From: a virus
Taxonomy: Duplodnaviria; Caudoviricetes
Length of the DNA stretch: 29,184 bases
Virus record (IMG/VR): IMGVR_UViG_3300037515_000316
Location: 1-29,184 of that record
Strand: one strand, 5' to 3'
In this document: positions 3,443 through 28,694 of the stretch, piece by piece
Numbering within the stretch: position 1 is the stretch's first letter
Layout: the number at the start of each line of letters is the position of its first letter
Program-made: the position numbers and the translations under genes
Notes under the pieces: generated by a model
Told to the model about the DNA's origin: nothing
The model's input: only the letters and a program-made list of their open reading frames with translations
Database searches by the model: none

Positions 3443-4347
3443 TATTTTACTTCTTCTATATCTCCAAACTTTACAGAGTTATTAAATATATTTAAAAAAC
3501 TATAATTTATATTTGTTAGTATATAATTATAATTATATATTATAAACATTTGAATATTATCATCTTCCATTTCACATGCTAAAATCATTATAGTTTTTTT
3601 AATTATATTTTCAACATTTATTGGATTTTTTTTATATATTAACCAATAAGGTATTACAAATTCATTTATAGCAATTACATATATCCTTTCTAATATAATA
3701 TTAATTTGTTGTTGAAAATTACATAATCTCCATTTATTTTCTATAATACTTTTTTTATTATATAAACAAGCTATATCTAAAAAATTATTACCTTTATTTA
3801 AAGCGAAAACTCTATGTAATGAATATTCATAATAAATATCAAATTTTCTAAAATTAAATATATTATCTTCAATTAAATTAGAAGAACTAACAAAAGGATA
3901 TAGTTGTAAACTATCCATTTCTAATTTTTTTAATATATCTGTTTTAAACTTTTTAATTGGTAATATATATCTATTTAATAAAAAATTATAATTATTAACA
4001 GATTTTTCCCAATCTAATACATTTTTATGTCTTTCTGTAATTTTATTAAGTTCTATACAATATAAAATTTTAGGTGAAGCATAATTAAATTCTAATTTAG
4101 ATGCAAAATTTTCTTCTAATAATTCTAATAAATATAAAGAGTTATTAGCATTATATAATATAATATTTTTATTACTTCTTAACGGGAAAGATTCACCATA
4201 ATGACTAATTTTACCATTTGTTTCATATATATTTAATAAATTACGTATATAAACATGTTGATCTTGTGTAGCTATTATTTCTACATTATTTATAATATGA
4301 TTATTTTTTTTTAATTGTGATATAGCTTCGTCTCCTATTATTAACAT
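3442..4347 (-). CDS. hypothetical protein, possibly a degenerate nucleotidyltransferase-like fold
   Basis: 301-aa ORF. The N-terminus MLIIGDEA...NVEII loosely resembles hhhGS...DxD but lacks the canonical residues. Confidence 0.55.
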   Translation of the reverse strand: MLIIGDEAISQLKKNNHIINNVEIIATQDQHVYIRNLLNIYETNGKISHYGESFPLRSNKNIILYNANNSLYLLELLEENFASKLEFNYASPKILYCIELNKITERHKNVLDWEKSVNNYNFLLNRYILPIKKFKTDILKKLEMDSLQLYPFVSSSNLIEDNIFNFRKFDIYYEYSLHRVFALNKGNNFLDIACLYNKKSIIENKWRLCNFQQQINIILERIYVIAINEFVIPYWLIYKKNPINVENIIKKTIMILACEMEDDNIQMFIIYNYNYILTNINYSFLNIFNNSVKFGDIEEVK

Positions 4348-4359
4348 ATTTTATTATTT

Positions 4360-5007
4360 TTAAAAATATAAATCATCTGTTTTTTTCCATTTATAAATAT
4401 ATAAGTTCATATTACTACCATTAGTACTATTATATTTTGTTTTTGTAACTATATCCATATAATCTTTAATAAAAAGTTCAAATCTTTCAATATAACCTTC
4501 TTTAATATCAAATATTATTTGATTAGTAGTATATTTTTTTAATATTTTAAAAAATTCTTTTTTATCTTCATCTTTTATATAAATTATTTCTATAGCTCTA
4601 CCAACAGAAGATAATTGACAATTTTCAGTAGGATATTTGCATACAACTATTTTAGTGTAATAATCATATTGACTTAAAAATTCTATAGTTTTATTATATT
4701 TTTCTGATTCAGAACCATTATAATCATTTATACTTTTTATAAAAGGTTTTTTAGGTAATTCTTTTTTTTCAACTTTTTGTATATTTGGTTTAATTATTTC
4801 ATTATTAAGACTACCTATGGAACTATCTTTCATATATTTTTGTATGTCATTTTCAAGTTCTAATTGTTCTTTCATCTTTTTAACAATTTTAACATGTTCT
4901 TTTTCTGTTTTTATAGGTATAAAAGATGATTGTATTTTTTCTTTTTTTCCAATATGTTTTTTTCTGTTATTAATTATATTAATCATTATTTTAAAAATAT
5001 TAATCAT
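4360..5007 (-). CDS. hypothetical protein
   Basis: 215-aa Lys-rich ORF on the coding strand. Confidence 0.6.
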   Translation of the reverse strand: MINIFKIMINIINNRKKHIGKKEKIQSSFIPIKTEKEHVKIVKKMKEQLELENDIQKYMKDSSIGSLNNEIIKPNIQKVEKKELPKKPFIKSINDYNGSESEKYNKTIEFLSQYDYYTKIVVCKYPTENCQLSSVGRAIEIIYIKDEDKKEFFKILKKYTTNQIIFDIKEGYIERFELFIKDYMDIVTKTKYNSTNGSNMNLYIYKWKKTDDLYF

Positions 5008-5042
5008 TATTTATTATTTATAAAAATTAAAAAAATTAGGTA

Positions 5043-5068
5043 AATAAGGGGAATTTAATCCCCTTATT
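5043..5068 (-). terminator. probable intrinsic terminator after the RNR gene
   Basis: AATAAGGGGA-ATTTAA-TCCCCTTATT perfect 10-bp inverted repeat a few bases past the stop codon. Confidence 0.7.
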
Positions 5069-5076
5069 AAATTTAA

Positions 5077-6936
5077 TTAAATAATTTCACAGTTTCCACC
5101 AGCACAAGCTAATTCACCAGTTAAATCTGTATTATCATTCTCTTCAATAATTTTAGTTAAATCAATTGGATTATTATTAATATAATCTATTAATTTATTA
5201 TAATGTTCTTCACTACATGATGTAAATGGTGCATCTTTATAAGTACCACCATCATAAGGTAATACTGAAAGACCATTAAATGTGTTTTTATTGTACCACA
5301 TCCATTCTCCTACATCTTCCCACTCATGTGGTTTACATGTTATTGTAGCTGAAACATTATTACTATTTGGTCCTCTTCTATGTCCTTTTTGCACCCATTC
5401 TAAGTTAAACTTTTTAACTCTAGATAATAAATCTAAAGCCGTTTCGTCTTCTCTAAGAACTGCATTGTCAGGAGCTTTTTGAGGAATACCTATTACAGCA
5501 TCTTTAGGTTGATATTCCATAACTTTAATTAATTTCGGATGATATTTTGAAAAAAAGTTATATAAATCATCTCCTACAGTACATTGCATATTTCTAATAT
5601 AATATTTAGAATGCCATGCATGTATTCCAGAAGATGTACCAACAACACAAGATGTCGTACCGCTTGGTTTTATGGTTGAAACTCTAGCTGCTTTATTAAT
5701 ACCAATTAATTCAGAAACTCTTAAATTTTCATCTTTTGCTATATTACAAGCTATAGTTAAATCTAAATTATTAAGAGTACCATTACCTATACCAGTTATT
5801 CCTACGCCTATTAAAGCATCTTTTTCAGTATTATGTTTCCATATACTTCTAAGATAATGAAAGTCTGTAAAACCTGCTTGTAATGTACCAAAAAAGGCTG
5901 CAATTTCAGAAGTTTTGTTAAAATCTTCTTGATTATTAATTACACCACCGTTGATTTCAGTCAAATTACAGAAAGTAAAAGGTCTTAACGAAATTTCCAC
6001 ACAGGGATTTGTACCTTGTTCTGGATCATTTGTAAAATAAATACCAGGTTCACCAGAGTTAGAATCTACTGTAATTTGCCAAAGCTTTTTAAATTCATCT
6101 TTTTCAATTCTGTTTCGTAGAATAACAGCTGAATTATTAGCCCTACCAAGTTCAGGATATAATTCCCACCAAGCACCATGTTTACAAGTAGCCATTTCTT
6201 TATCATCCATAGAAAATAAAGATATTAGAGCTGCTCTTCTTATTCCACCTGCTAATACAGCATCCGCAATAAGACAATTAATTCTATGTACTTCAAATGG
6301 TGTTAATTTATCACCATTTTTTTTTATATTTAATAAAGTTTCTATTTTTGTTAAACATATTTTTAAAGGTGCAGGACCTGGTGCTTTACCTCCAGCTGTA
6401 ACTAATCTACTACCTTTACTTCTTATATCTGAAAAATCAAATCTAGGTTTAACTAATGTTTTACCAAAATAAGATTTCATTAATTGTTTAATAGCATCTG
6501 CCCATCCTTCTATACTATCACCTATTAAATATTTAGCTTCTTTTAAAGGTTTTTGTATAGCTGGTAAATGCTCAACATGATGGTACTGGACGGAATATCC
6601 AATACCAGTACCACCTAACAACAAAAACATTAACTCACTAAAACATCTATAATCAGACATTGGCATATATCCACAATTATAGATTCTTGCTTCATTTTTT
6701 TCAACAGCAGCACCAGCAAATTGTGCTGCTCTCATAGAAGGTAAAACTTGTTTACTATAAAGATATTGACCTTTAGTCATTATCTCATCATTTAACTTAG
6801 GATAACGTTTAGTCATCATAGTTAAATATCTTGTAATTATATCATTCCAAGTTTCTCTTCTTTTTAATTCTGGTATAAATTTTGAATATTTATTATATAC
6901 CACTATATTTGATAGTAATTCAATTCCTCTATCCAT
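5077..6936 (-). CDS. nrdJ: class II (adenosylcobalamin-dependent) ribonucleotide reductase
   Basis: RRETW, LPSMR, YNC, GGTGIGYS, TNPCVEI (thiyl Cys), KPSGTTS and the C-terminal CAGGNC redox pair. No small subunit in the window. Confidence 0.92.
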   Translation of the reverse strand: MDRGIELLSNIVVYNKYSKFIPELKRRETWNDIITRYLTMMTKRYPKLNDEIMTKGQYLYSKQVLPSMRAAQFAGAAVEKNEARIYNCGYMPMSDYRCFSELMFLLLGGTGIGYSVQYHHVEHLPAIQKPLKEAKYLIGDSIEGWADAIKQLMKSYFGKTLVKPRFDFSDIRSKGSRLVTAGGKAPGPAPLKICLTKIETLLNIKKNGDKLTPFEVHRINCLIADAVLAGGIRRAALISLFSMDDKEMATCKHGAWWELYPELGRANNSAVILRNRIEKDEFKKLWQITVDSNSGEPGIYFTNDPEQGTNPCVEISLRPFTFCNLTEINGGVINNQEDFNKTSEIAAFFGTLQAGFTDFHYLRSIWKHNTEKDALIGVGITGIGNGTLNNLDLTIACNIAKDENLRVSELIGINKAARVSTIKPSGTTSCVVGTSSGIHAWHSKYYIRNMQCTVGDDLYNFFSKYHPKLIKVMEYQPKDAVIGIPQKAPDNAVLREDETALDLLSRVKKFNLEWVQKGHRRGPNSNNVSATITCKPHEWEDVGEWMWYNKNTFNGLSVLPYDGGTYKDAPFTSCSEEHYNKLIDYINNNPIDLTKIIEENDNTDLTGELACAGGNCEII

Positions 6937-23462: not shown

Positions 23463-23788
23463 TTTTTTAAATTTTTATCAATATATCTATCATCCATATC
23501 TTTTCTAAATAAAAACATATATGATAAAAACATTGCATTACATAATAGATGTCCAACATGTGCTAATTTACTTTCTTTATCATTATCTTCACCTTCTAAA
23601 AAAGCATTTAAATGACGTTGTAAACTATCACAAATTTCTGTATATTTTAATCCTTTAGACCAATTCCATGAACTATATTTCTGTGCTCCAAACATAAGCA
23701 CCTGAACCATAGGCTCAAGTGCTTTGAATGAAACTAGTGACCATCTTAATTTTCCTTTATTATCTCTTGTTCCTATATTTTCAATCAT
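23459..23788 (-). CDS. dATP/dGTP diphosphohydrolase-like protein (DUF5664 type)
   Basis: GKLRWSLV, VLMFGAQKY...NW, SLQRHL and DKESKLAHVGH...NAMFL motifs. Confidence 0.85.
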   Translation of the reverse strand: MIENIGTRDNKGKLRWSLVSFKALEPMVQVLMFGAQKYSSWNWSKGLKYTEICDSLQRHLNAFLEGEDNDKESKLAHVGHLLCNAMFLSYMFLFRKDMDDRYIDKNLKK

Positions 23789-24618
23789 TTTTTCTAACTA
23801 CATTTTTTATATAATTATAAATTCTATTTAATCCTGTTATATCATCTGGTTTAGGTAATTCTTTAAAATAATTAACTGCACCATCAAAATATAAAGGACA
23901 GGTTTCTCCTCCACCACCTTCTCTTCCACCAATAATTTCTAGGAATCTAATATTATCTTTAAATGTAGTAATATCATATCCCATATATTCTCTTATTTCA
24001 TGTTTATAAGGACTAAATAATCCTAATATAACATCCGCATCTCTAAAAGTTAGTTTACAATCACCTAATCCATCTGCACTAGGTTTAAGCTTACTGGCTT
24101 TAAAGTTTTCAAGAGATTCTTGATTAGCGGCTTGTTGCTGAATTACAACAGGTATATATTTATACTTATTTCTAAGTCTAATTAAGTAATCTGATGATAA
24201 TTTTGTAATAGATTGATGTAATGAAAGTTTTTGACCATTTTCAGAATCTGATGATATTAAACCAATATGGTCTATAAATACCATTACATATTCTTCTGGG
24301 TCATTAGCTTCATAATAATCATCTATTTCAGTATCTTCACCATTTATACTAATTATTTTTTTATGTTGTACACCGTTGGCATTAGCATAATCCCTCATGA
24401 ATTTAAAAATTCCAAATGGGTTTCTAACATCATCGATGAACTCTACTATTTCTTCAATTTTATTGAAATAGGGTTTATATTTAGATATTAATTCTAAAGT
24501 TTGTTCTGTTAATATATTATCTTCTTTAGTACTTTTAAGGTCTTTAGGAGCTATTCTAAGACCTTCTTTTACATATAAGATATTAGAGAATGCTGATAGC
24601 ATTTTTTGCTCCTTACTC
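23781..24618 (-). CDS. dnaB: exon 3 of DnaB-like (SF4) replicative helicase
   Basis: Starts with the G of a split ATG codon, then SKEQKM. Walker B VFIDHIG, VVIQQQ, DADVILG and REG motifs. Confidence 0.88.
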
Positions 24619-24742
24619 CATTTTATTAACCTAAGCGAGTTTACCACTTAGTTCTATATATTACTATATAGTTTAGACTATATCTTCAATAACAGCTGTT
24701 ATTGCTGGGATTTCTTGGATATATTATATTCTAAATATTTTG

Positions 24743-24816
24743 TGGATATGATGAGAATCGAACTCACTTCACTACCCAACATTAAGTCGGGTCGCTTACC
24801 ATAAAGCTCCATACCC
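24743..24816 (-). ncRNA. tRNA-like cloverleaf (non-canonical; nominal anticodon TAA) embedded in helicase intron 2
   Basis: Acceptor GGGTATG/CATATCC, D arm GCTT-TATGGT-AAGC, anticodon arm ACCCGAC-TTAAT-GTTGGGT, T arm GTGAG-TTCGATT-CTCAT, discriminator A, no encoded CCA. Confidence 0.75.
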
Positions 24817-24927
24817 ATATTTAGTTTCAATATCTAGTCGTTCGACCTACTATAATCATTTAAATTATAGCTTGGTACGGGATTGTCCTATAAGGAGTTT
24901 CCCCGTTTAACCCAGTTAAGAGACAAG

Positions 24928-25665
24928 TTATAATTTGTATAACATTGAATTACAAATATAAGGTTCTATTAGTTTTCTAAAAGTTTCTTTTGAACTATTT
25001 TTTATATATAATCTATTTAAAGAATGTAAACTAGTATTTAAATTATACTTATCTTTCAAAAAATCTCTAAATTCATTTATATTTTTTTTTGTAAAAGAAC
25101 ATGTATGAATTTGATAAGCTGAAGTTCCTACTTTTGAACCATCATCCATATAATGAATAGCCATAGCAAGAGGTGTATAATATTTTTCTAGTAAATTTAT
25201 TGGTATTATTTTACCATTTTCTTTATAAAATTCATTATAAAAATAATTTAAATTTTTGTTAACTTTTAAATTAAATACAGTTGAACTATATATTTTATTA
25301 GTTATCTTATTAGGTGTTAATCTAACATAATCTTTAATATTTCCTAAATTAGGAAAATAAGATTTTTTATATTTAACATAATCTTTTTGTTTTAAAGAAT
25401 GTTGACATGTAAAAGTTGTACCTAAGTCATATTTTCTATTTTTTAAATTTCCGTCACCTAAAACACAACCAAAAATAACTTCTAATTGAATAGATGTTAA
25501 ATTATAAGGTATATGTTCTCTTAATGATTTCCTATTTAATTTATGAACTTTTAATCTATGATAATATATTACTTGTTGTGATACATTATATATATTTCCA
25601 ATTTCTGTGTCAGTTAATCCTTTATTAACTAATTCTTGTAATTCTTGTTTTTTGATACTAAACAT
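24928..25665 (-). CDS. LAGLIDADG homing endonuclease with N-terminal HTH, in L1 of helicase intron 2
   Basis: FGCVLGDGNL and AIHYMDDGS motifs, HTH-like GLTDTEIGNIYNVS. The ATG at 25665 follows the promoter. Confidence 0.88.
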   Translation of the reverse strand: MFSIKKQELQELVNKGLTDTEIGNIYNVSQQVIYYHRLKVHKLNRKSLREHIPYNLTSIQLEVIFGCVLGDGNLKNRKYDLGTTFTCQHSLKQKDYVKYKKSYFPNLGNIKDYVRLTPNKITNKIYSSTVFNLKVNKNLNYFYNEFYKENGKIIPINLLEKYYTPLAMAIHYMDDGSKVGTSAYQIHTCSFTKKNINEFRDFLKDKYNLNTSLHSLNRLYIKNSSKETFRKLIEPYICNSMLYKL

Positions 25666-25687
25666 ATTTATTTTTATTTGTATCCTA

Positions 25688-25719
25688 CAAAGGTACAAAA
25701 AATATATTTAATATCCAAA
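25688..25719 (-). promoter_or_regulatory. Bacteroidetes primary-sigma promoter for the intron 2 endonuclease
   Basis: TTTG (25719-25716), 20-nt spacer, TACCTTTG (25695-25688). Confidence 0.82.
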
Positions 25720-25738
25720 TTTTTGAGTACTTATTTTT

Positions 25739-25842
25739 ATCTCTAAAGTAAAATAGAAGATTTTTAAACGAACATTTAAATTATTATCTATTACTTGTTG
25801 AATAGTATTATACAAAAATAGCCAATCAGCTATTTGAGTTTT
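25739..25842 (-). CDS. dnaB: exon 2 (104 nt) of DnaB-like helicase, absent from the ORF track
   Basis: Translates KTQIADWLFLYNTIQQVIDNNLNVRLKIFYFTLE plus AT. Joins exon 1 to give Walker A ANSKIG|KT. The three exons total 1107 nt (368 aa). Confidence 0.9.
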
Positions 25843-25922
25843 CAATTTTGTTACTCTATACTAATTCTAGTACATGGTTATATCATTTCTGTATAACTCT
25901 ATATGTCACCATATAGTTCGGA

Positions 25923-26546
25923 TTATAAATAGTTAATTTTATAATGCATAGATGGAATTTTTAAAACATAAGGTTTAATTAAATTACATAATTTATATAA
26001 ATTTTCTTTATTAAATCGTATTCTATAACCATCATTACGTTTTATATAATTTAAATAACCGTTTATACCATATTGCGAAAAGCATAATAATAAGTTTTCT
26101 ATTGATTTTTTATCATAAGATATAGCTGTTATATCTCCATAATGATATTCATAGTTATTTTTCTTTTTATTAATACTTTTACAAAAACATCCATCATCCA
26201 TCCAATAAATTGCAAGAATTTCAGGTGTTATATTTTTAACCCATCGTTTATAAAATTTTCTTTTACCATTTTTATAAAATCTATTTCTAATAGATTCTAA
26301 TATATGATATCCAGTTGTATAAACTTTAATTAATTTTGGTATATTTTTACTTTTTTTTATTCCAATTTTACAATTAATATTTATATTATCTAATATTGAT
26401 TTTTTATATTCAATATAATCCATATGTCTTAAATGGTGAGCTATATCTAAATAAGCTCTTTTACTACCATTTTTTAGTTTAGGATTATGAATATTTCCAT
26501 CTCCAATAGTTAATCCTATTAATGTGTAATATCTATTTCTCTTCAT
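25923..26546 (-). CDS. LAGLIDADG homing endonuclease inside helicase intron 1
   Basis: LIGLTIGDGNI and LAIYWMDDG motifs. Confidence 0.88.
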   Translation of the reverse strand: MKRNRYYTLIGLTIGDGNIHNPKLKNGSKRAYLDIAHHLRHMDYIEYKKSILDNININCKIGIKKSKNIPKLIKVYTTGYHILESIRNRFYKNGKRKFYKRWVKNITPEILAIYWMDDGCFCKSINKKKNNYEYHYGDITAISYDKKSIENLLLCFSQYGINGYLNYIKRNDGYRIRFNKENLYKLCNLIKPYVLKIPSMHYKINYL

Positions 26547-26597
26547 ACTTACAATGTATTACTACTTTATTACTATTTATTTTACTATCTCATCAAC

Positions 26598-26900
26598 CTA
26601 AGAAAATATTGAATCAATCTGTTCACCTGTTTGTGAACAAAAGTTTCCATTACAATTACAAATAATATTTTTATTATATAATTTATCTTCTAATATACAT
26701 TTCTTAGGTTGTTCATTGTTAGTCTCTACACCGTTTTGTAAAATTATTTTAATCTTATTATATACTTGTTCTATAGAAGGAAGAGGTGCACAATCAGGAC
26801 TTTCTCCTTGACAACATCTATCTTTAGAACGAAGTAAACATTCTAATAAAATTAATTCTTTTTTATCAAGTGACGGCACGGGATTGTCTTTTTTATTCAT
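26598..26900 (-). CDS. Cys-rich 100-aa ORF overprinted on the intron 1 ribozyme core
   Basis: The ATG overlaps the stop of the upstream ORF. DNPVPS is encoded by Q, NGVETN by R, and the stop lies in the P8 3' strand. Translation is unproven. Confidence 0.5.
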   Translation of the reverse strand: MNKKDNPVPSLDKKELILLECLLRSKDRCCQGESPDCAPLPSIEQVYNKIKIILQNGVETNNEQPKKCILEDKLYNKNIICNCNGNFCSQTGEQIDSIFS

Positions 26901-27468
26901 TTATAAAAAAATTATTTACTCTAGTTAATTCATGTGTATTTAACCAATCTTTTGTTGATTTAATTTTAGTTTCCCAAGGTCTCCAGCAATGTCCATCATG
27001 AAAATAATCTTGTTTTAGTAAAATTTGTTTATAAAAATAACAAAATCTTTTTAATTTATTTTTATATTTACATTTGCCAGTTATTAATAATGGTTCAAAA
27101 AATTTTTCTTCTAAATTTAATTCTGTTATTTTAATTGTAGCAAAAGTTTCATATAAAAATCTTATTAATGATAATACTAAAGCATTCTTTATATTACAAT
27201 TATAAGCTTTAAATGTAAAAGAATTTTCTCCAATAACAATATCTTCTAATTTTAACATATCTGTAATGTAATTTAAATAAGAATCTCTATATTTAAAACT
27301 ACTTTCACAGTTTATATTATGTAATGTTATTTTAGATATTAATTTATTTTCATGAAATAAATCATTAAAACATATTTTTTCATTAAAATTTAAAATATTA
27401 CCATTTTTATAATATATATCATATTTAGTATTTCTTATAGTTCCTCCCCATTCTCTTTCTTTGTACAT
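26893..27468 (-). CDS. hypothetical protein (cargo in the intron 1 P5 loop)
   Basis: 191-aa ORF with no nuclease motif seen. Confidence 0.7.
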   Translation of the reverse strand: MYKEREWGGTIRNTKYDIYYKNGNILNFNEKICFNDLFHENKLISKITLHNINCESSFKYRDSYLNYITDMLKLEDIVIGENSFTFKAYNCNIKNALVLSLIRFLYETFATIKITELNLEEKFFEPLLITGKCKYKNKLKRFCYFYKQILLKQDYFHDGHCWRPWETKIKSTKDWLNTHELTRVNNFFINE

Positions 27469-27469
27469 A

Positions 27470-27769
27470 TCATAAATTTTTAATATACATTTTTAAATCA
27501 CCTAAATTAGGATAACCAACTCTTCTTTCAAAAGTATGTTTCATTTTAAAACCTAATTTTTTAAGATTGTTTTCTAATATATATTCACCTGGACTAACTA
27601 TTGTAAAAACTGCTGTTTGTCCATTTCCTGTTGTATAACCTACTTCAATATTTATTTCTTTTTCTTCTTTTAATTTCTTTAATGCTATTTCTATATGTTC
27701 TATAGGTGTTTCATTATCAATTCTACTTAATTGACATAATGCACAGCAATCTGTTGCAGTTTTAATCAT
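27470..27769 (-). CDS. hypothetical protein (cargo in the intron 1 P5 loop)
   Basis: 99-aa ORF with an A-rich initiation region. Contains CCALC and LKKLGF. Confidence 0.7.
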   Translation of the reverse strand: MIKTATDCCALCQLSRIDNETPIEHIEIALKKLKEEKEINIEVGYTTGNGQTAVFTIVSPGEYILENNLKKLGFKMKHTFERRVGYPNLGDLKMYIKNL

Positions 27770-27802
27770 TTTTTATATTTTTTAAAAGAGTTTCCCCGTT
27801 AA

Positions 27803-28243
27803 TTAATTAATCTTTTTATATTTTTCTTTTTCTTTATTTAAAATAAAATTTTCTTTCCAATTTTCACCTATATAATCATAATTAGTAAAAAATGTTGAAT
27901 GATATTGAAAAGTATCACTATATCCAGTAGGACATTCAATAGTTCCTATTAATACAAATCTTGTTTCTAATATATCTAATATTTTTTTATCAGTTACATG
28001 AACTCCAAATGTTAATTTTCTTGTATTATTTAAAAATTCTTCAATTCTATCTAAACCATCTTGGATACTTTTTTCATCACTTTTATTAAAACAATTTGAT
28101 ATAGTATGTAAATAACAATGTTTACAATTACCAATAGCATTACTATAATAAAATTGCATATAATCACTTACTTTTACTCGATATATTTCATTATTATCAA
28201 TATTTTTTATTTTTTCATCTTTTTTTATTTCTTTTATATTCAT
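27803..28243 (-). CDS. hypothetical protein (cargo between P2/P3 and P4 of intron 1)
   Basis: 146-aa ORF whose stop abuts the P element. Confidence 0.7.
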   Translation of the reverse strand: MNIKEIKKDEKIKNIDNNEIYRVKVSDYMQFYYSNAIGNCKHCYLHTISNCFNKSDEKSIQDGLDRIEEFLNNTRKLTFGVHVTDKKILDILETRFVLIGTIECPTGYSDTFQYHSTFFTNYDYIGENWKENFILNKEKEKYKKIN

Positions 28244-28320
28244 GTTATTAAAAATTAATTAATCCCTATTTCTAGGATTCTGAATTCAATTATATATTAC
28301 TATATAAAGGGGCAAAGTCT

Positions 28321-28485
28321 ACCAATTTTACTATTCGCAGAAATTAAATAATAACGTCCTTGTTCTATACCTGGAAGTTGTTTTTCAAATCTAGGTAATC
28401 CCCAAGGAATACAATTTATTTTACCATTTAATATCCTATTTCTTCTTTCAATTAAATTTTCATATACTCTTTCGTATATACTCAT
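28321..28485 (-). CDS. dnaB: exon 1 of DnaB-like helicase
   Basis: INCIPWGLPRFEKQLPGIEQGRYYLISANSKIG, the standard lead-in to the SF4 Walker A. 55 codons. Confidence 0.9.
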
Positions 28486-28694
28486 TATTTTATAATTTTA
28501 TAATAATTATCTTCATATAATTCTTCAAGATAATCATTTAATAATTCAGGTTTATATTTACCTTTTATTATAAACTTAGTTTTATCTATTCTAAGTCTAT
28601 TTAAACTAGGTATTATAACATTTTTTTCAGTATGATATACTGATTTTTTAAATTCTGATAATGTCATATTTATCAATTTAAATTTGTTGTCCAA
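28485..28694 (-). CDS. hypothetical protein
   Basis: 69-aa ORF with a TAATG overlap onto the helicase start. Confidence 0.6.
   Translation of the reverse strand: MDNKFKLINMTLSEFKKSVYHTEKNVIIPSLNRLRIDKTKFIIKGKYKPELLNDYLEELYEDNYYKIIK

Follow-up and report, generated by a model that had tools for sequence, protein, structure and literature searches.

Single homing-endonuclease open reading frames (ORFs) are carried by the phage group I introns of T4 td (with I-TevI), nrdB, and nrdD, and from T4 td comes also the knowledge that translating such an ORF conflicts with folding the intron, with the principle that an RNA is either spliced or translated (PMC3984707, citing Gibb and Edgell 2010). IStrons join a group I intron to transposon genes of the IS605/IS607 type and to "uncharacterized accessory factors" (bioRxiv 10.1101/2023.11.20.567912), and a cob intron of Exserohilum turcicum holds five LAGLIDADG genes (PMC11835236). 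The crAss-like phages are rich in group I introns, which Yutin et al. 2021 (PMC7886860) found by way of endonuclease domains in the Delta and Zeta groups of the gut. Taken jointly, these sources and PMC10136315 place intron ORFs usually in loops, with occasional overlap of the core. The subject of this report is an insertion in a crAss-like helicase gene, at positions 25843 to 28320 (minus strand) of a 29,184-nucleotide (nt) stretch, the window, which is positions 1 to 29,184 of the IMG/VR record IMGVR_UViG_3300037515_000316 (Duplodnaviria; Caudoviricetes). An initial annotation of the window had proposed a group I intron with multi-gene cargo lying inside the helicase Walker A motif. The analysis makes it highly probable that the insertion is such an intron and that its family splices.

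The protein of helicase exon 3 matches only Crassvirales DnaB-type replicative helicases, best that of the Cellulophaga phage phi14:2 (Steigviridae, 50% identity). The G+C content of the window is 18-30%. The interrupted gene and its first insertion are laid out as follows.

28321..28485, minus strand: helicase exon 1, ending ..ANSKIG, final base T
25843..28320, minus strand: intron 1, 2478 nt, of which about 2236 (about 90%) are covered by five sense ORFs
25739..25842, minus strand: helicase exon 2, KTQIAD...YFTLE-
23781..24618, minus strand: helicase exon 3, placed by protein search and exon-joining alignment

Excision of the 2478 nt joins ..AAAATTGGT to AAAACTCAA.., that is, ANSKIG to KTQIAD, with the helicase residues ANSKIGKTQIAD across the predicted spliced junction, and so places the insertion point between the G and the K of the Walker A loop GxxxxGK[TS]. 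The joined exons (28485..28321 + 25842..25739 + 24618..23781) form a 1107-nt open frame of 368 amino acids (aa), colinear over its whole length with that of crAssphage cr108_1, an uninterrupted helicase (50% identity, E 1e-115). There are no gaps at either junction: SANSKIG/KTQIAD is identical in the two proteins across junction 1, and at junction 2 YFTLE/MSKEQK is aligned to YFSWEMPAEQK. All three exons are 71-83% identical to those of relatives, without frameshift or stop. The rejoining of ANSKIG with KT and the intact frame of the three exons, both asserted in the initial annotation, are in this way borne out. Besides cr108_1, uninterrupted helicases are present in contigs L005-L007, L056, L142, and L139.

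The elements of a group I ribozyme, with paired regions (P) and joining regions (J) numbered in the usual way, are distributed through the insertion together with the cargo genes.

28309..28323, minus strand: P1, predicted from the sequence, in which exon GGT and intron AG pair with TT-GCC of the guide GCCCC (28313-28309), with a U-G wobble at the cut
28290..28307, minus strand: P2 hairpin with GTAA loop, containing the stop TAG of the exon-1 frame (28300-28302)
28281..28284, minus strand: P3 5' strand TTCA, paired by covariation with TGAA (26712-26715)
28263..28277, minus strand: extra hairpin with GAAA loop between P3 and P4, compensated (by eye) in L076 and L094
27802..28263, minus strand: cargo slot A, a 9-base-pair (bp) closing stem ATTAATTAA/TTAATTAAT around the 146-aa ORF
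27803..28243, minus strand: ORF of 146 aa ('GNCKHCYL' family), in slot A, within the 9-bp stem between P3 and P4
27784..27799, minus strand: P4 5' ACGGGG (27799-27794), J4/5, and P5 5' CTCTTTT (27790-27784), from motif search and covariation
27470..27769, minus strand: ORF of 99 aa, in the P5 loop
26893..27468, minus strand: ORF of 191 aa, in the P5 loop
26873..26892, minus strand: P5 3' AAAAGAC (26892-26886), J5/4, P4 3' TCCCGT = Q (26883-26878), and P6 5' GCCGT (26877-26873)
26598..26900, minus strand: ORF of 100 aa, in frame through P5', Q, P6, R, P3', and P8, with its stop TAG in the P8 3' strand and a Cys-rich tail
26712..26734, minus strand: P6 3' ACGGT (26734-26730), P7 5' GACTA = R (26724-26720), and P3 3' TGAA
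26594..26711, minus strand: P8, a 12-bp stem CAACCTAAGAAA/TTTCTTAGGTTG (26711-26700 with 26605-26594) closing a 94-nt coding loop
26584..26591, minus strand: J8/7, then the four bases that open the P7 3' strand (GAGA-TAGT), the start of S
25922..26583, minus strand: LAGLIDADG cassette within the P7 3' strand, 662 nt (37-nt leader plus ORF), its ends able to pair, ATAAATAG (26580-26573) with CTATTTAT (25932-25925)
25923..26546, minus strand: ORF of 207 aa, predicted LAGLIDADG_2 homing endonuclease, both motifs retaining their acidic residues
25899..25921, minus strand: the C completing P7 (25921), then the P9 hairpin CTATAT-GGTGAC-ATATAG (25916-25899)
25843..25897, minus strand: P9.1 (25897-25877, loop CAGAAATGA), P9.2 (25872-25859), and the conserved tail GTAACAAAATTG to the terminal G

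The order P1, P2, P3, P4, P5, P5', P4', P6, P6', P7, P3', P8, P8', P7', P9 is preserved, and the conserved elements P, Q, R, and S occur once each in canonical order. The initial annotation had described core elements correctly ordered and dispersed, with long-range partners retained for P4, P5, P6, and P8; all were found on the minus strand at, or a few bases from, the positions it gave, as were its ORFs of 146, 99, 191, and 207 aa. To that description can now be added P3, the 100-aa ORF overlapping the core, and the group I identity of the insertion at 25738-24619. The reading frame of exon 1 ends seven codons into intron 1, within P2. In the window copy, P1 comprises three exon pairs and two intron pairs; most relatives have four exon pairs. 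Subgroup IA2, the type of T4 td, is defined by P7.1/P7.2 between P7 and P3'. Both are absent here, just ACAA (4 nt) lying between GACTA and TGAA; in L004 and L017 this place is taken by a gene. In a departure from the canonical layout, the 5' strand of P3, as placed by covariation, probably does not adjoin P4, being separated from it by the slot-A gene and one or two extra hairpins. The reading of the insertion as an intein was rejected, the inserted frames being out of frame and containing stops.

A search with a 14-base core motif gave about 22 viral contigs that also bear other core motifs. In nine of these contigs both helicase exons flank a homologous intron at the same codon as in the window, 2141-2946 nt long and with 3-5 sense ORFs; three further contigs (L103, L031, L037) are cut off, with one helicase exon visible. 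It is this recurrence of the ordered motifs and of the insertion codon in nine other contigs, together with compensatory base changes, that takes the proposal of a single group I-type intron with multi-gene cargo beyond chance. P3 occurs as six different 4-mers (TTCA/TGAA in the window; CTCA/TGAG, TTCC/GGAA, CTCT/GGAG, CTCG/CGAG, and GATC/GATC in relatives), with each position paired in 12-14 of 14 sequences by anchored-strand counts. The final pair of P7 is A-U in 10 and G-C in 8 members, paired in 18/18. Compensated changes are found also in P5 (L058 and L008), P9 (L035 and L103), P8 (L035), and, by eye, P9.1; P4 and most of P6 are invariant and so carry no covariation information. In all ten helicase introns a T precedes the 5' cut and the last base is G, and the guide GCCC(C) lies 7-10 nt inside the intron.

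The core of the window copy is spread over 2.4 kb, and natural compact relatives were scored in place of a core collapsed in silico. In the compact relative L056 the same core motifs occupy about 200 nt; it aligns to the full Rfam model Intron_gpI (RF00028) at 47.3 bits (E 3.1e-11), an alignment taken as the natural equivalent of the collapsed-core test, and L103, whose intron is at the same place in the helicase gene, reaches 30.9 bits (E 2.4e-4). An unconstrained minimum-free-energy fold of the 3' 903 nt recovered P8, P9, P9.1, and P9.2, and did not recover P7 or the 8-bp stem of the LAGLIDADG cassette; such folds of long AT-rich RNA are unreliable, and this one was given no weight either way. 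No terminator-like sites were found inside intron 1, and a promoter scan (54 sites vs. 43.8 +/- 6.7 in shuffles) was uninformative.

Among the nine contigs is the cultured lytic Cellulophaga phage phi14:2 (L003, NC_021806 9000-17500), with its intron at about 4150-6766. Its RefSeq record leaves the intron unannotated: the helicase is g029, the last 280 aa only, exon 1 is g024, and the intron ORFs are the hypothetical proteins g025-g028. The PolB gene in the same record is annotated as joined, unlike the helicase. The family is found at other sites as well. In L076 (4037-6123), a member with several ORFs splits a family-A DNA polymerase gene, the Pfam profile running from 29 to 160 upstream and from 161 to 380 downstream. 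The compact form in L056 (about 3600-4660), with one upstream ORF, follows an ORF resembling superfamily 2 (SF2) helicases and probably interrupts an SF2 helicase gene. As judged from these flanking genes, the intron family has colonised at least two or three different genes. In L044 (about 2650-2965), L071 (about 1900-2433), and L017, an extra small, classical-looking group I intron lies 9 nt upstream of the large one, so that in the Walker A region the two are parted by a micro-exon, AAAGTGGGT (or AAAATTGGT).

The assembly of the intron 1 region holds. Contigs of metagenome run X1, which may be the source sample (share 0.96), bridge 25768-26982 and 26963-28600, and run X2, from a second study, contains 100%-identical pieces inside intron 1. 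At position 26591, in J8/7 just before the split S, the plus-strand C of the window is T in an X1 contig, a change of G to A as read in the RNA. The window allele is the sole one at the intron 1 site in X1 (depth about 13), and no empty allele was seen in contigs of X1, X2, X4, and X5, where contigs can miss rare variants. Of the empty, minimal, and differently loaded alleles for which the initial annotation had proposed a comparison of this site, differently loaded ones are thus present at the same codon in relatives, and neither an empty nor a minimal allele turned up in the two metagenomes that contain the phage.

The multi-gene character of the cargo is also sustained, and its families recur among the ten introns. 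By ORF clustering, the 99-aa family is present in 7/10; a family of about 190 aa in 5/10, beside the 99-aa gene in the P5 loop; a family of 146-185 aa between P3 and P4 in 4/10; LAGLIDADG genes in 3/10; and a small core-spanning ORF in 10/10, with several further families at the 3' ends of the introns. The load varies between alleles, and at least six different positions are occupied. In the window the genes are packed as in an operon, with a 1-nt gap between the 99-aa and 191-aa ORFs and an 8-nt overlap between the 191-aa and 100-aa ORFs. The LAGLIDADG proteins excepted, Pfam and PHROG gave no family for the 146-, 99-, 191-, and 100-aa ORFs or for the cargo of relatives, and no recognisable endonuclease was found in 7/10 introns, a result that bears on the spread by homing suggested in the initial annotation. 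Among 45 cargo ORFs, no nuclease family other than LAGLIDADG reached the cut-off; the 155-aa ORF of L004 has a weak PDDEXK_2 match (E 0.002) below it.

The 99-aa family is clearly coding and, to judge from its pattern of change, under purifying selection. Its members are 64-74% identical to the window protein and share 48 invariant columns. Third codon positions change most (0.37 changes per site, against 0.24 at first and 0.17 at second positions), and codon differences number 436 synonymous vs. 641 non-synonymous. The structural model (pLDDT 74.9) bears a weak likeness to the C-terminal half of GNAT chains only (Z <= 7.7, Foldseek E >= 0.03). A tblastn search of GenBank phages with this protein gave no match, and the ESM Atlas offered nothing usable on cargo function. 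The Foldseek rows for the 191-aa model are weak (E >= 0.13, many of them LAGLIDADG chains at TM about 0.18), and VIA related it at Z <= 6.8 to chains of PafA, Dop, and glutamate-cysteine ligase; no fold was assigned. Homologues of the 99-aa gene were located at 15 loci, 12 of them within the helicase intron; the other 3 are free-standing. The one in L142 (1404-3776) is accompanied by homologues from two other cargo families and lies immediately upstream of an uninterrupted helicase gene, an arrangement that fits movement of genes between intron and replication module. The free-standing homologues (99 aa, about 190 aa, 117-127 aa) lie upstream of uninterrupted helicases at L142 1404-3776 and L139 1969-2966.

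One of the cargo genes appears to use the ribozyme itself as coding sequence. The 100-aa ORF reads ..KDNPVPSL.. over P5'/Q/P6 and ..NGVETNNEQP.. over P6'/R/P3'/P8. In 22/22 distinct family members the distance from Q to R is a multiple of three, over a range of 30-201 nt, and in all 22 the core-spanning frame has no stops between Q and R; stops number 1-9 in the other two frames. The R-to-S distance is divisible by three in 14/19; of the five exceptions, three have a frame that runs a few bases further and ends in S, and two (L004, L017) have a LAGLIDADG gene between R and S. Because a conserved stop-free frame runs through Q, R, and P8 in the family, the P6 and P8 loops are read as protein-coding and the core strands as doubling as codons. 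The part of the predicted protein encoded by the P8 loop is Cys-rich in many members.

A second peculiarity, which the initial annotation had picked out, is an S element split around a LAGLIDADG gene. All 17 relatives having an S element contain GAGA[TC]AGTCC unbroken, with P9 directly after. In the window, S runs as far as TAGT (26587-26584), is followed by the 662-nt cassette, and resumes from 25921 with CCGAAC and P9. From the Tetrahymena numbering (G264-C311), G26724-C25921 is presumably the guanosine-binding pair. The ends of the cassette can pair over 8 bp, so C25921 could return beside TAGT. The 207-aa product matches Pfam LAGLIDADG_2 (PF03161) at 68 bits against a cut-off of 25 and PHROG 11023 at E 2e-14, its motifs being ..GLTIGDGN.. 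and ..YWMDDGCF... An explanation of the cassette as a twintron was rejected, as a 37-nt leader and an ORF leave no space for a second core. The LAGLIDADG genes of L004 and L017 (24-28% identity) are found just after GACTA, another invariant core sequence. The position of LAGLIDADG genes at two different invariant core sequences suggests that such endonuclease genes target the conserved DNA of the intron itself. Since the gene for the 207-aa protein, the sole endonuclease gene in this copy, sits in the conserved core, its endonuclease may likewise target the intron rather than the helicase gene.

A mechanism can be proposed on this basis. The helicase pre-mRNA would fold by means of long-range helices that close each block of genes, after which intron 1 would splice out and rejoin the G and K of Walker A. 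The sequence places each block in a loop or junction: a 9-bp stem located between P3 and P4 encloses the 146-aa gene, the P5 loop contains both the 99-aa and the 191-aa gene, the 100-aa gene extends through P5', P4', P6, P7, P3', and P8, and the LAGLIDADG gene occupies a hairpin within the P7 3' strand. The core would have to fold before ribosomes entered the cargo, the core-spanning gene above all. Because ribosomes there would block folding, splicing and translation of the cargo should be mutually exclusive on any one RNA, and the mRNA for the cargo would be either the excised intron or unspliced RNA. In the window copy, the G-C pair of P7 could form only if the LAGLIDADG hairpin folded out as a three-way junction, for which the LAGLIDADG protein might serve as a maturase. 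The cargo would be a changing set of small replication-module genes and invading endonuclease genes, swapped by recombination among related introns. The intron family might then be a gene platform, in which the ribozyme provides the spacers of an operon, core elements (Q, P6, R, P3', P8) serve as codons of a Cys-rich protein, a splice-or-translate switch times helicase against cargo, and the DNA of the core is a homing target for secondary endonuclease genes. This full reading is tentative, its chances falling a little short of even.

Several observations weigh against a functioning intron. The record, which comes from a virus collection, is a fragment of 29 kb (CheckV 29%), so that a second helicase gene may lie elsewhere, and no RNA run was found among the listed runs holding the window sequence, which are labelled sediment metagenomes. 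The Rfam scores of L056 and L103 are both under the gathering score of 50, and the window copy has no Intron_gpI match at the gathering threshold, at E 10 on 4 kb, or on the 346-nt stretch from Q to S. P1 has three exon pairs, the Ile codon being ATT instead of the GTG of most relatives and the guide uncompensated, and the stretch between P3 and P4, with its hairpins and gene, is foreign to canonical group I introns. Passage of a ribosome through the core-spanning ORF would unfold the ribozyme. Finally, the P7 G-C pair is separated by a 662-nt insertion seen in 0/17 other members, which could cripple catalysis.

Perhaps, then, the family splices and this copy is dead, the insertion in the P7 strand and the weakened P1 having abolished splicing and left a helicase that is non-functional or rescued in trans. 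The P7 pair is indeed split only here (G-A in 1/18, with a contiguous strand in the 17/17 others), most relatives have a P1 longer by one pair, and the missing Rfam match and the possible second helicase would be as expected. Against this, all three exons are intact, at the identities given above; the allele is the sole one at the site in X1, with identical pieces in a second study's run; the 8-bp pairing of the insertion ends would bring C25921 beside TAGT; and LAGLIDADG proteins acting as maturases are known. A dead intron is judged unlikely, and if the family-level reading is true, the window copy is probably still competent to splice. That there might be no splicing at all, the helicase being made as separate polypeptides or the interruption being an artefact of assembly, is very improbable. 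A TTG at 25845 could start translation of exon 2, and the holders of the sequence include no RNA run, but the cut falls within the Walker A loop, the ribozyme helices covary, metagenome contigs span the region, and eight other contigs, as well as a phage that replicates in culture, have this architecture too.

A different challenge concerns the cargo, which might consist of unrecognised homing endonucleases and their partners, each having invaded the intron separately, rather than of ferried accessory genes. The variability of the load between alleles, its many positions, the LAGLIDADG genes at two conserved core sequences (after GACTA in L004 and L017, inside TAGTC in the window), and the sub-threshold PDDEXK_2 match in L004 would all suit a selfish accumulation. 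Yet the 99-aa family is under apparent purifying selection and its model suggests half of a GNAT-like domain rather than a nuclease; in phages with uninterrupted helicases, free-standing replication-module genes are homologous to it and to two other families; and LAGLIDADG is the sole nuclease family in the 45 cargo ORFs. Separate invasion as the whole explanation is regarded as rather unlikely.

The helicase gene contains a second insertion.

24619..25738, minus strand: intron 2, 1120 nt, with a 256-aa LAGLIDADG ORF (25698-24928) in its 5' part and a tRNA in J7/3

Its core matches Rfam Intron_gpI at 44.7 bits (E 2e-10). DNA contigs from two metagenome runs (X1, X2) join 24618 to 25739; because they skip precisely the predicted 1120 nt, the borders are confirmed. 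Intron 2 is polymorphic in DNA, and intron-less alleles coexist. The tRNA (anticodon UAA, 24742-24816, minus strand) lies between P7 and P3', flanked by an 8-bp stem. It was called by ARAGORN, scores 33.5 bits with the Rfam tRNA model against a gathering score of 29, and does not have the long variable arm usual for bacterial tRNA-Leu. A related X5 contig has 5 letters in this region vs. 88 in the window, and no tRNA was found in the 19 relatives' loci scanned. In L022 (6009-7135) a further helicase insertion of about 1.1 kb is found at residue 159/160 (window protein numbering), a site unlike that of intron 2.

The textbook phage group I intron is a compact ribozyme with at most one endonuclease gene in a peripheral loop. 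The family described here departs from that picture: it is about 90% coding, it accommodates genes not only in P5, in J7/3, and in the stretch from P3 to P4 but even within a P7 strand, and it keeps a frame through the catalytic core. If the intron splices, it would redraw the limits to which the core of a ribozyme can be dispersed and overprinted, and it would offer a natural system for the competition between folding and translation. Phage genomes are being mis-annotated, as with the helicase of phi14:2, recorded as a 280-aa fragment, and its intron-borne genes, recorded as ordinary hypothetical proteins. With phi14:2 and its Cellulophaga host in culture, the question of splicing is directly testable.

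As to novelty, no description of the helicase intron family, of a non-endonuclease multi-gene load in a phage, or of a conserved core-spanning gene was found in the open-access main text of the literature searched. The term "undescribed system" was nonetheless too strong, since group I introns with non-endonuclease genes or several ORFs are known from IStrons and, with up to five endonuclease genes, from fungal mitochondria. The known introns of crAss-like phages belong to the same virus order, interrupt core replication and structural genes, and have LAGLIDADG ORFs; the accessible part of PMC7886860 makes no mention of a helicase Walker A intron in marine or sediment Steigviridae-like phages or of its multi-gene load.

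As with the introns of T4-type phages, intron 1 is of the self-splicing type and interrupts a gene essential to the DNA metabolism of a lytic phage; the core has ORF sequence looped out of it, the exon frame meets a stop soon after the 5' splice site, and there is a conflict between translation and folding. T4-type introns, however, have no ORF or one, whereas the window intron has five, four of them without recognisable endonuclease identity. Besides P5 and the stretch from P3 to P4, a P7 strand also houses an ORF, and one ORF extends across most of the core; there is also no P7.1/P7.2, with 4 nt leading from P7 to P3'.

IStrons resemble intron 1 in being group I introns of the bacterial world with several non-homing genes, in which RNA folding competes with another use of the RNA. 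Neither the 5 window ORFs nor the 26 scanned ORFs of relatives gave a Pfam match to a transposase or TnpB family. Intron 1 thus differs in having no tnpA/tnpB, in occupying a fixed, conserved codon of a lytic phage gene, and in having its cargo threaded through the core. IStron genes are appended beside a compact ribozyme.

Fungal mitochondrial introns, too, can be kilobase-sized group I introns with more than one ORF, and the rnl intron houses rps3, a non-endonuclease gene. There, however, the ORFs are endonucleases or a single host gene; in the window intron they form a variable set of small ORFans, in a virus, arranged around and through a core that is predicted to be dual-coding.

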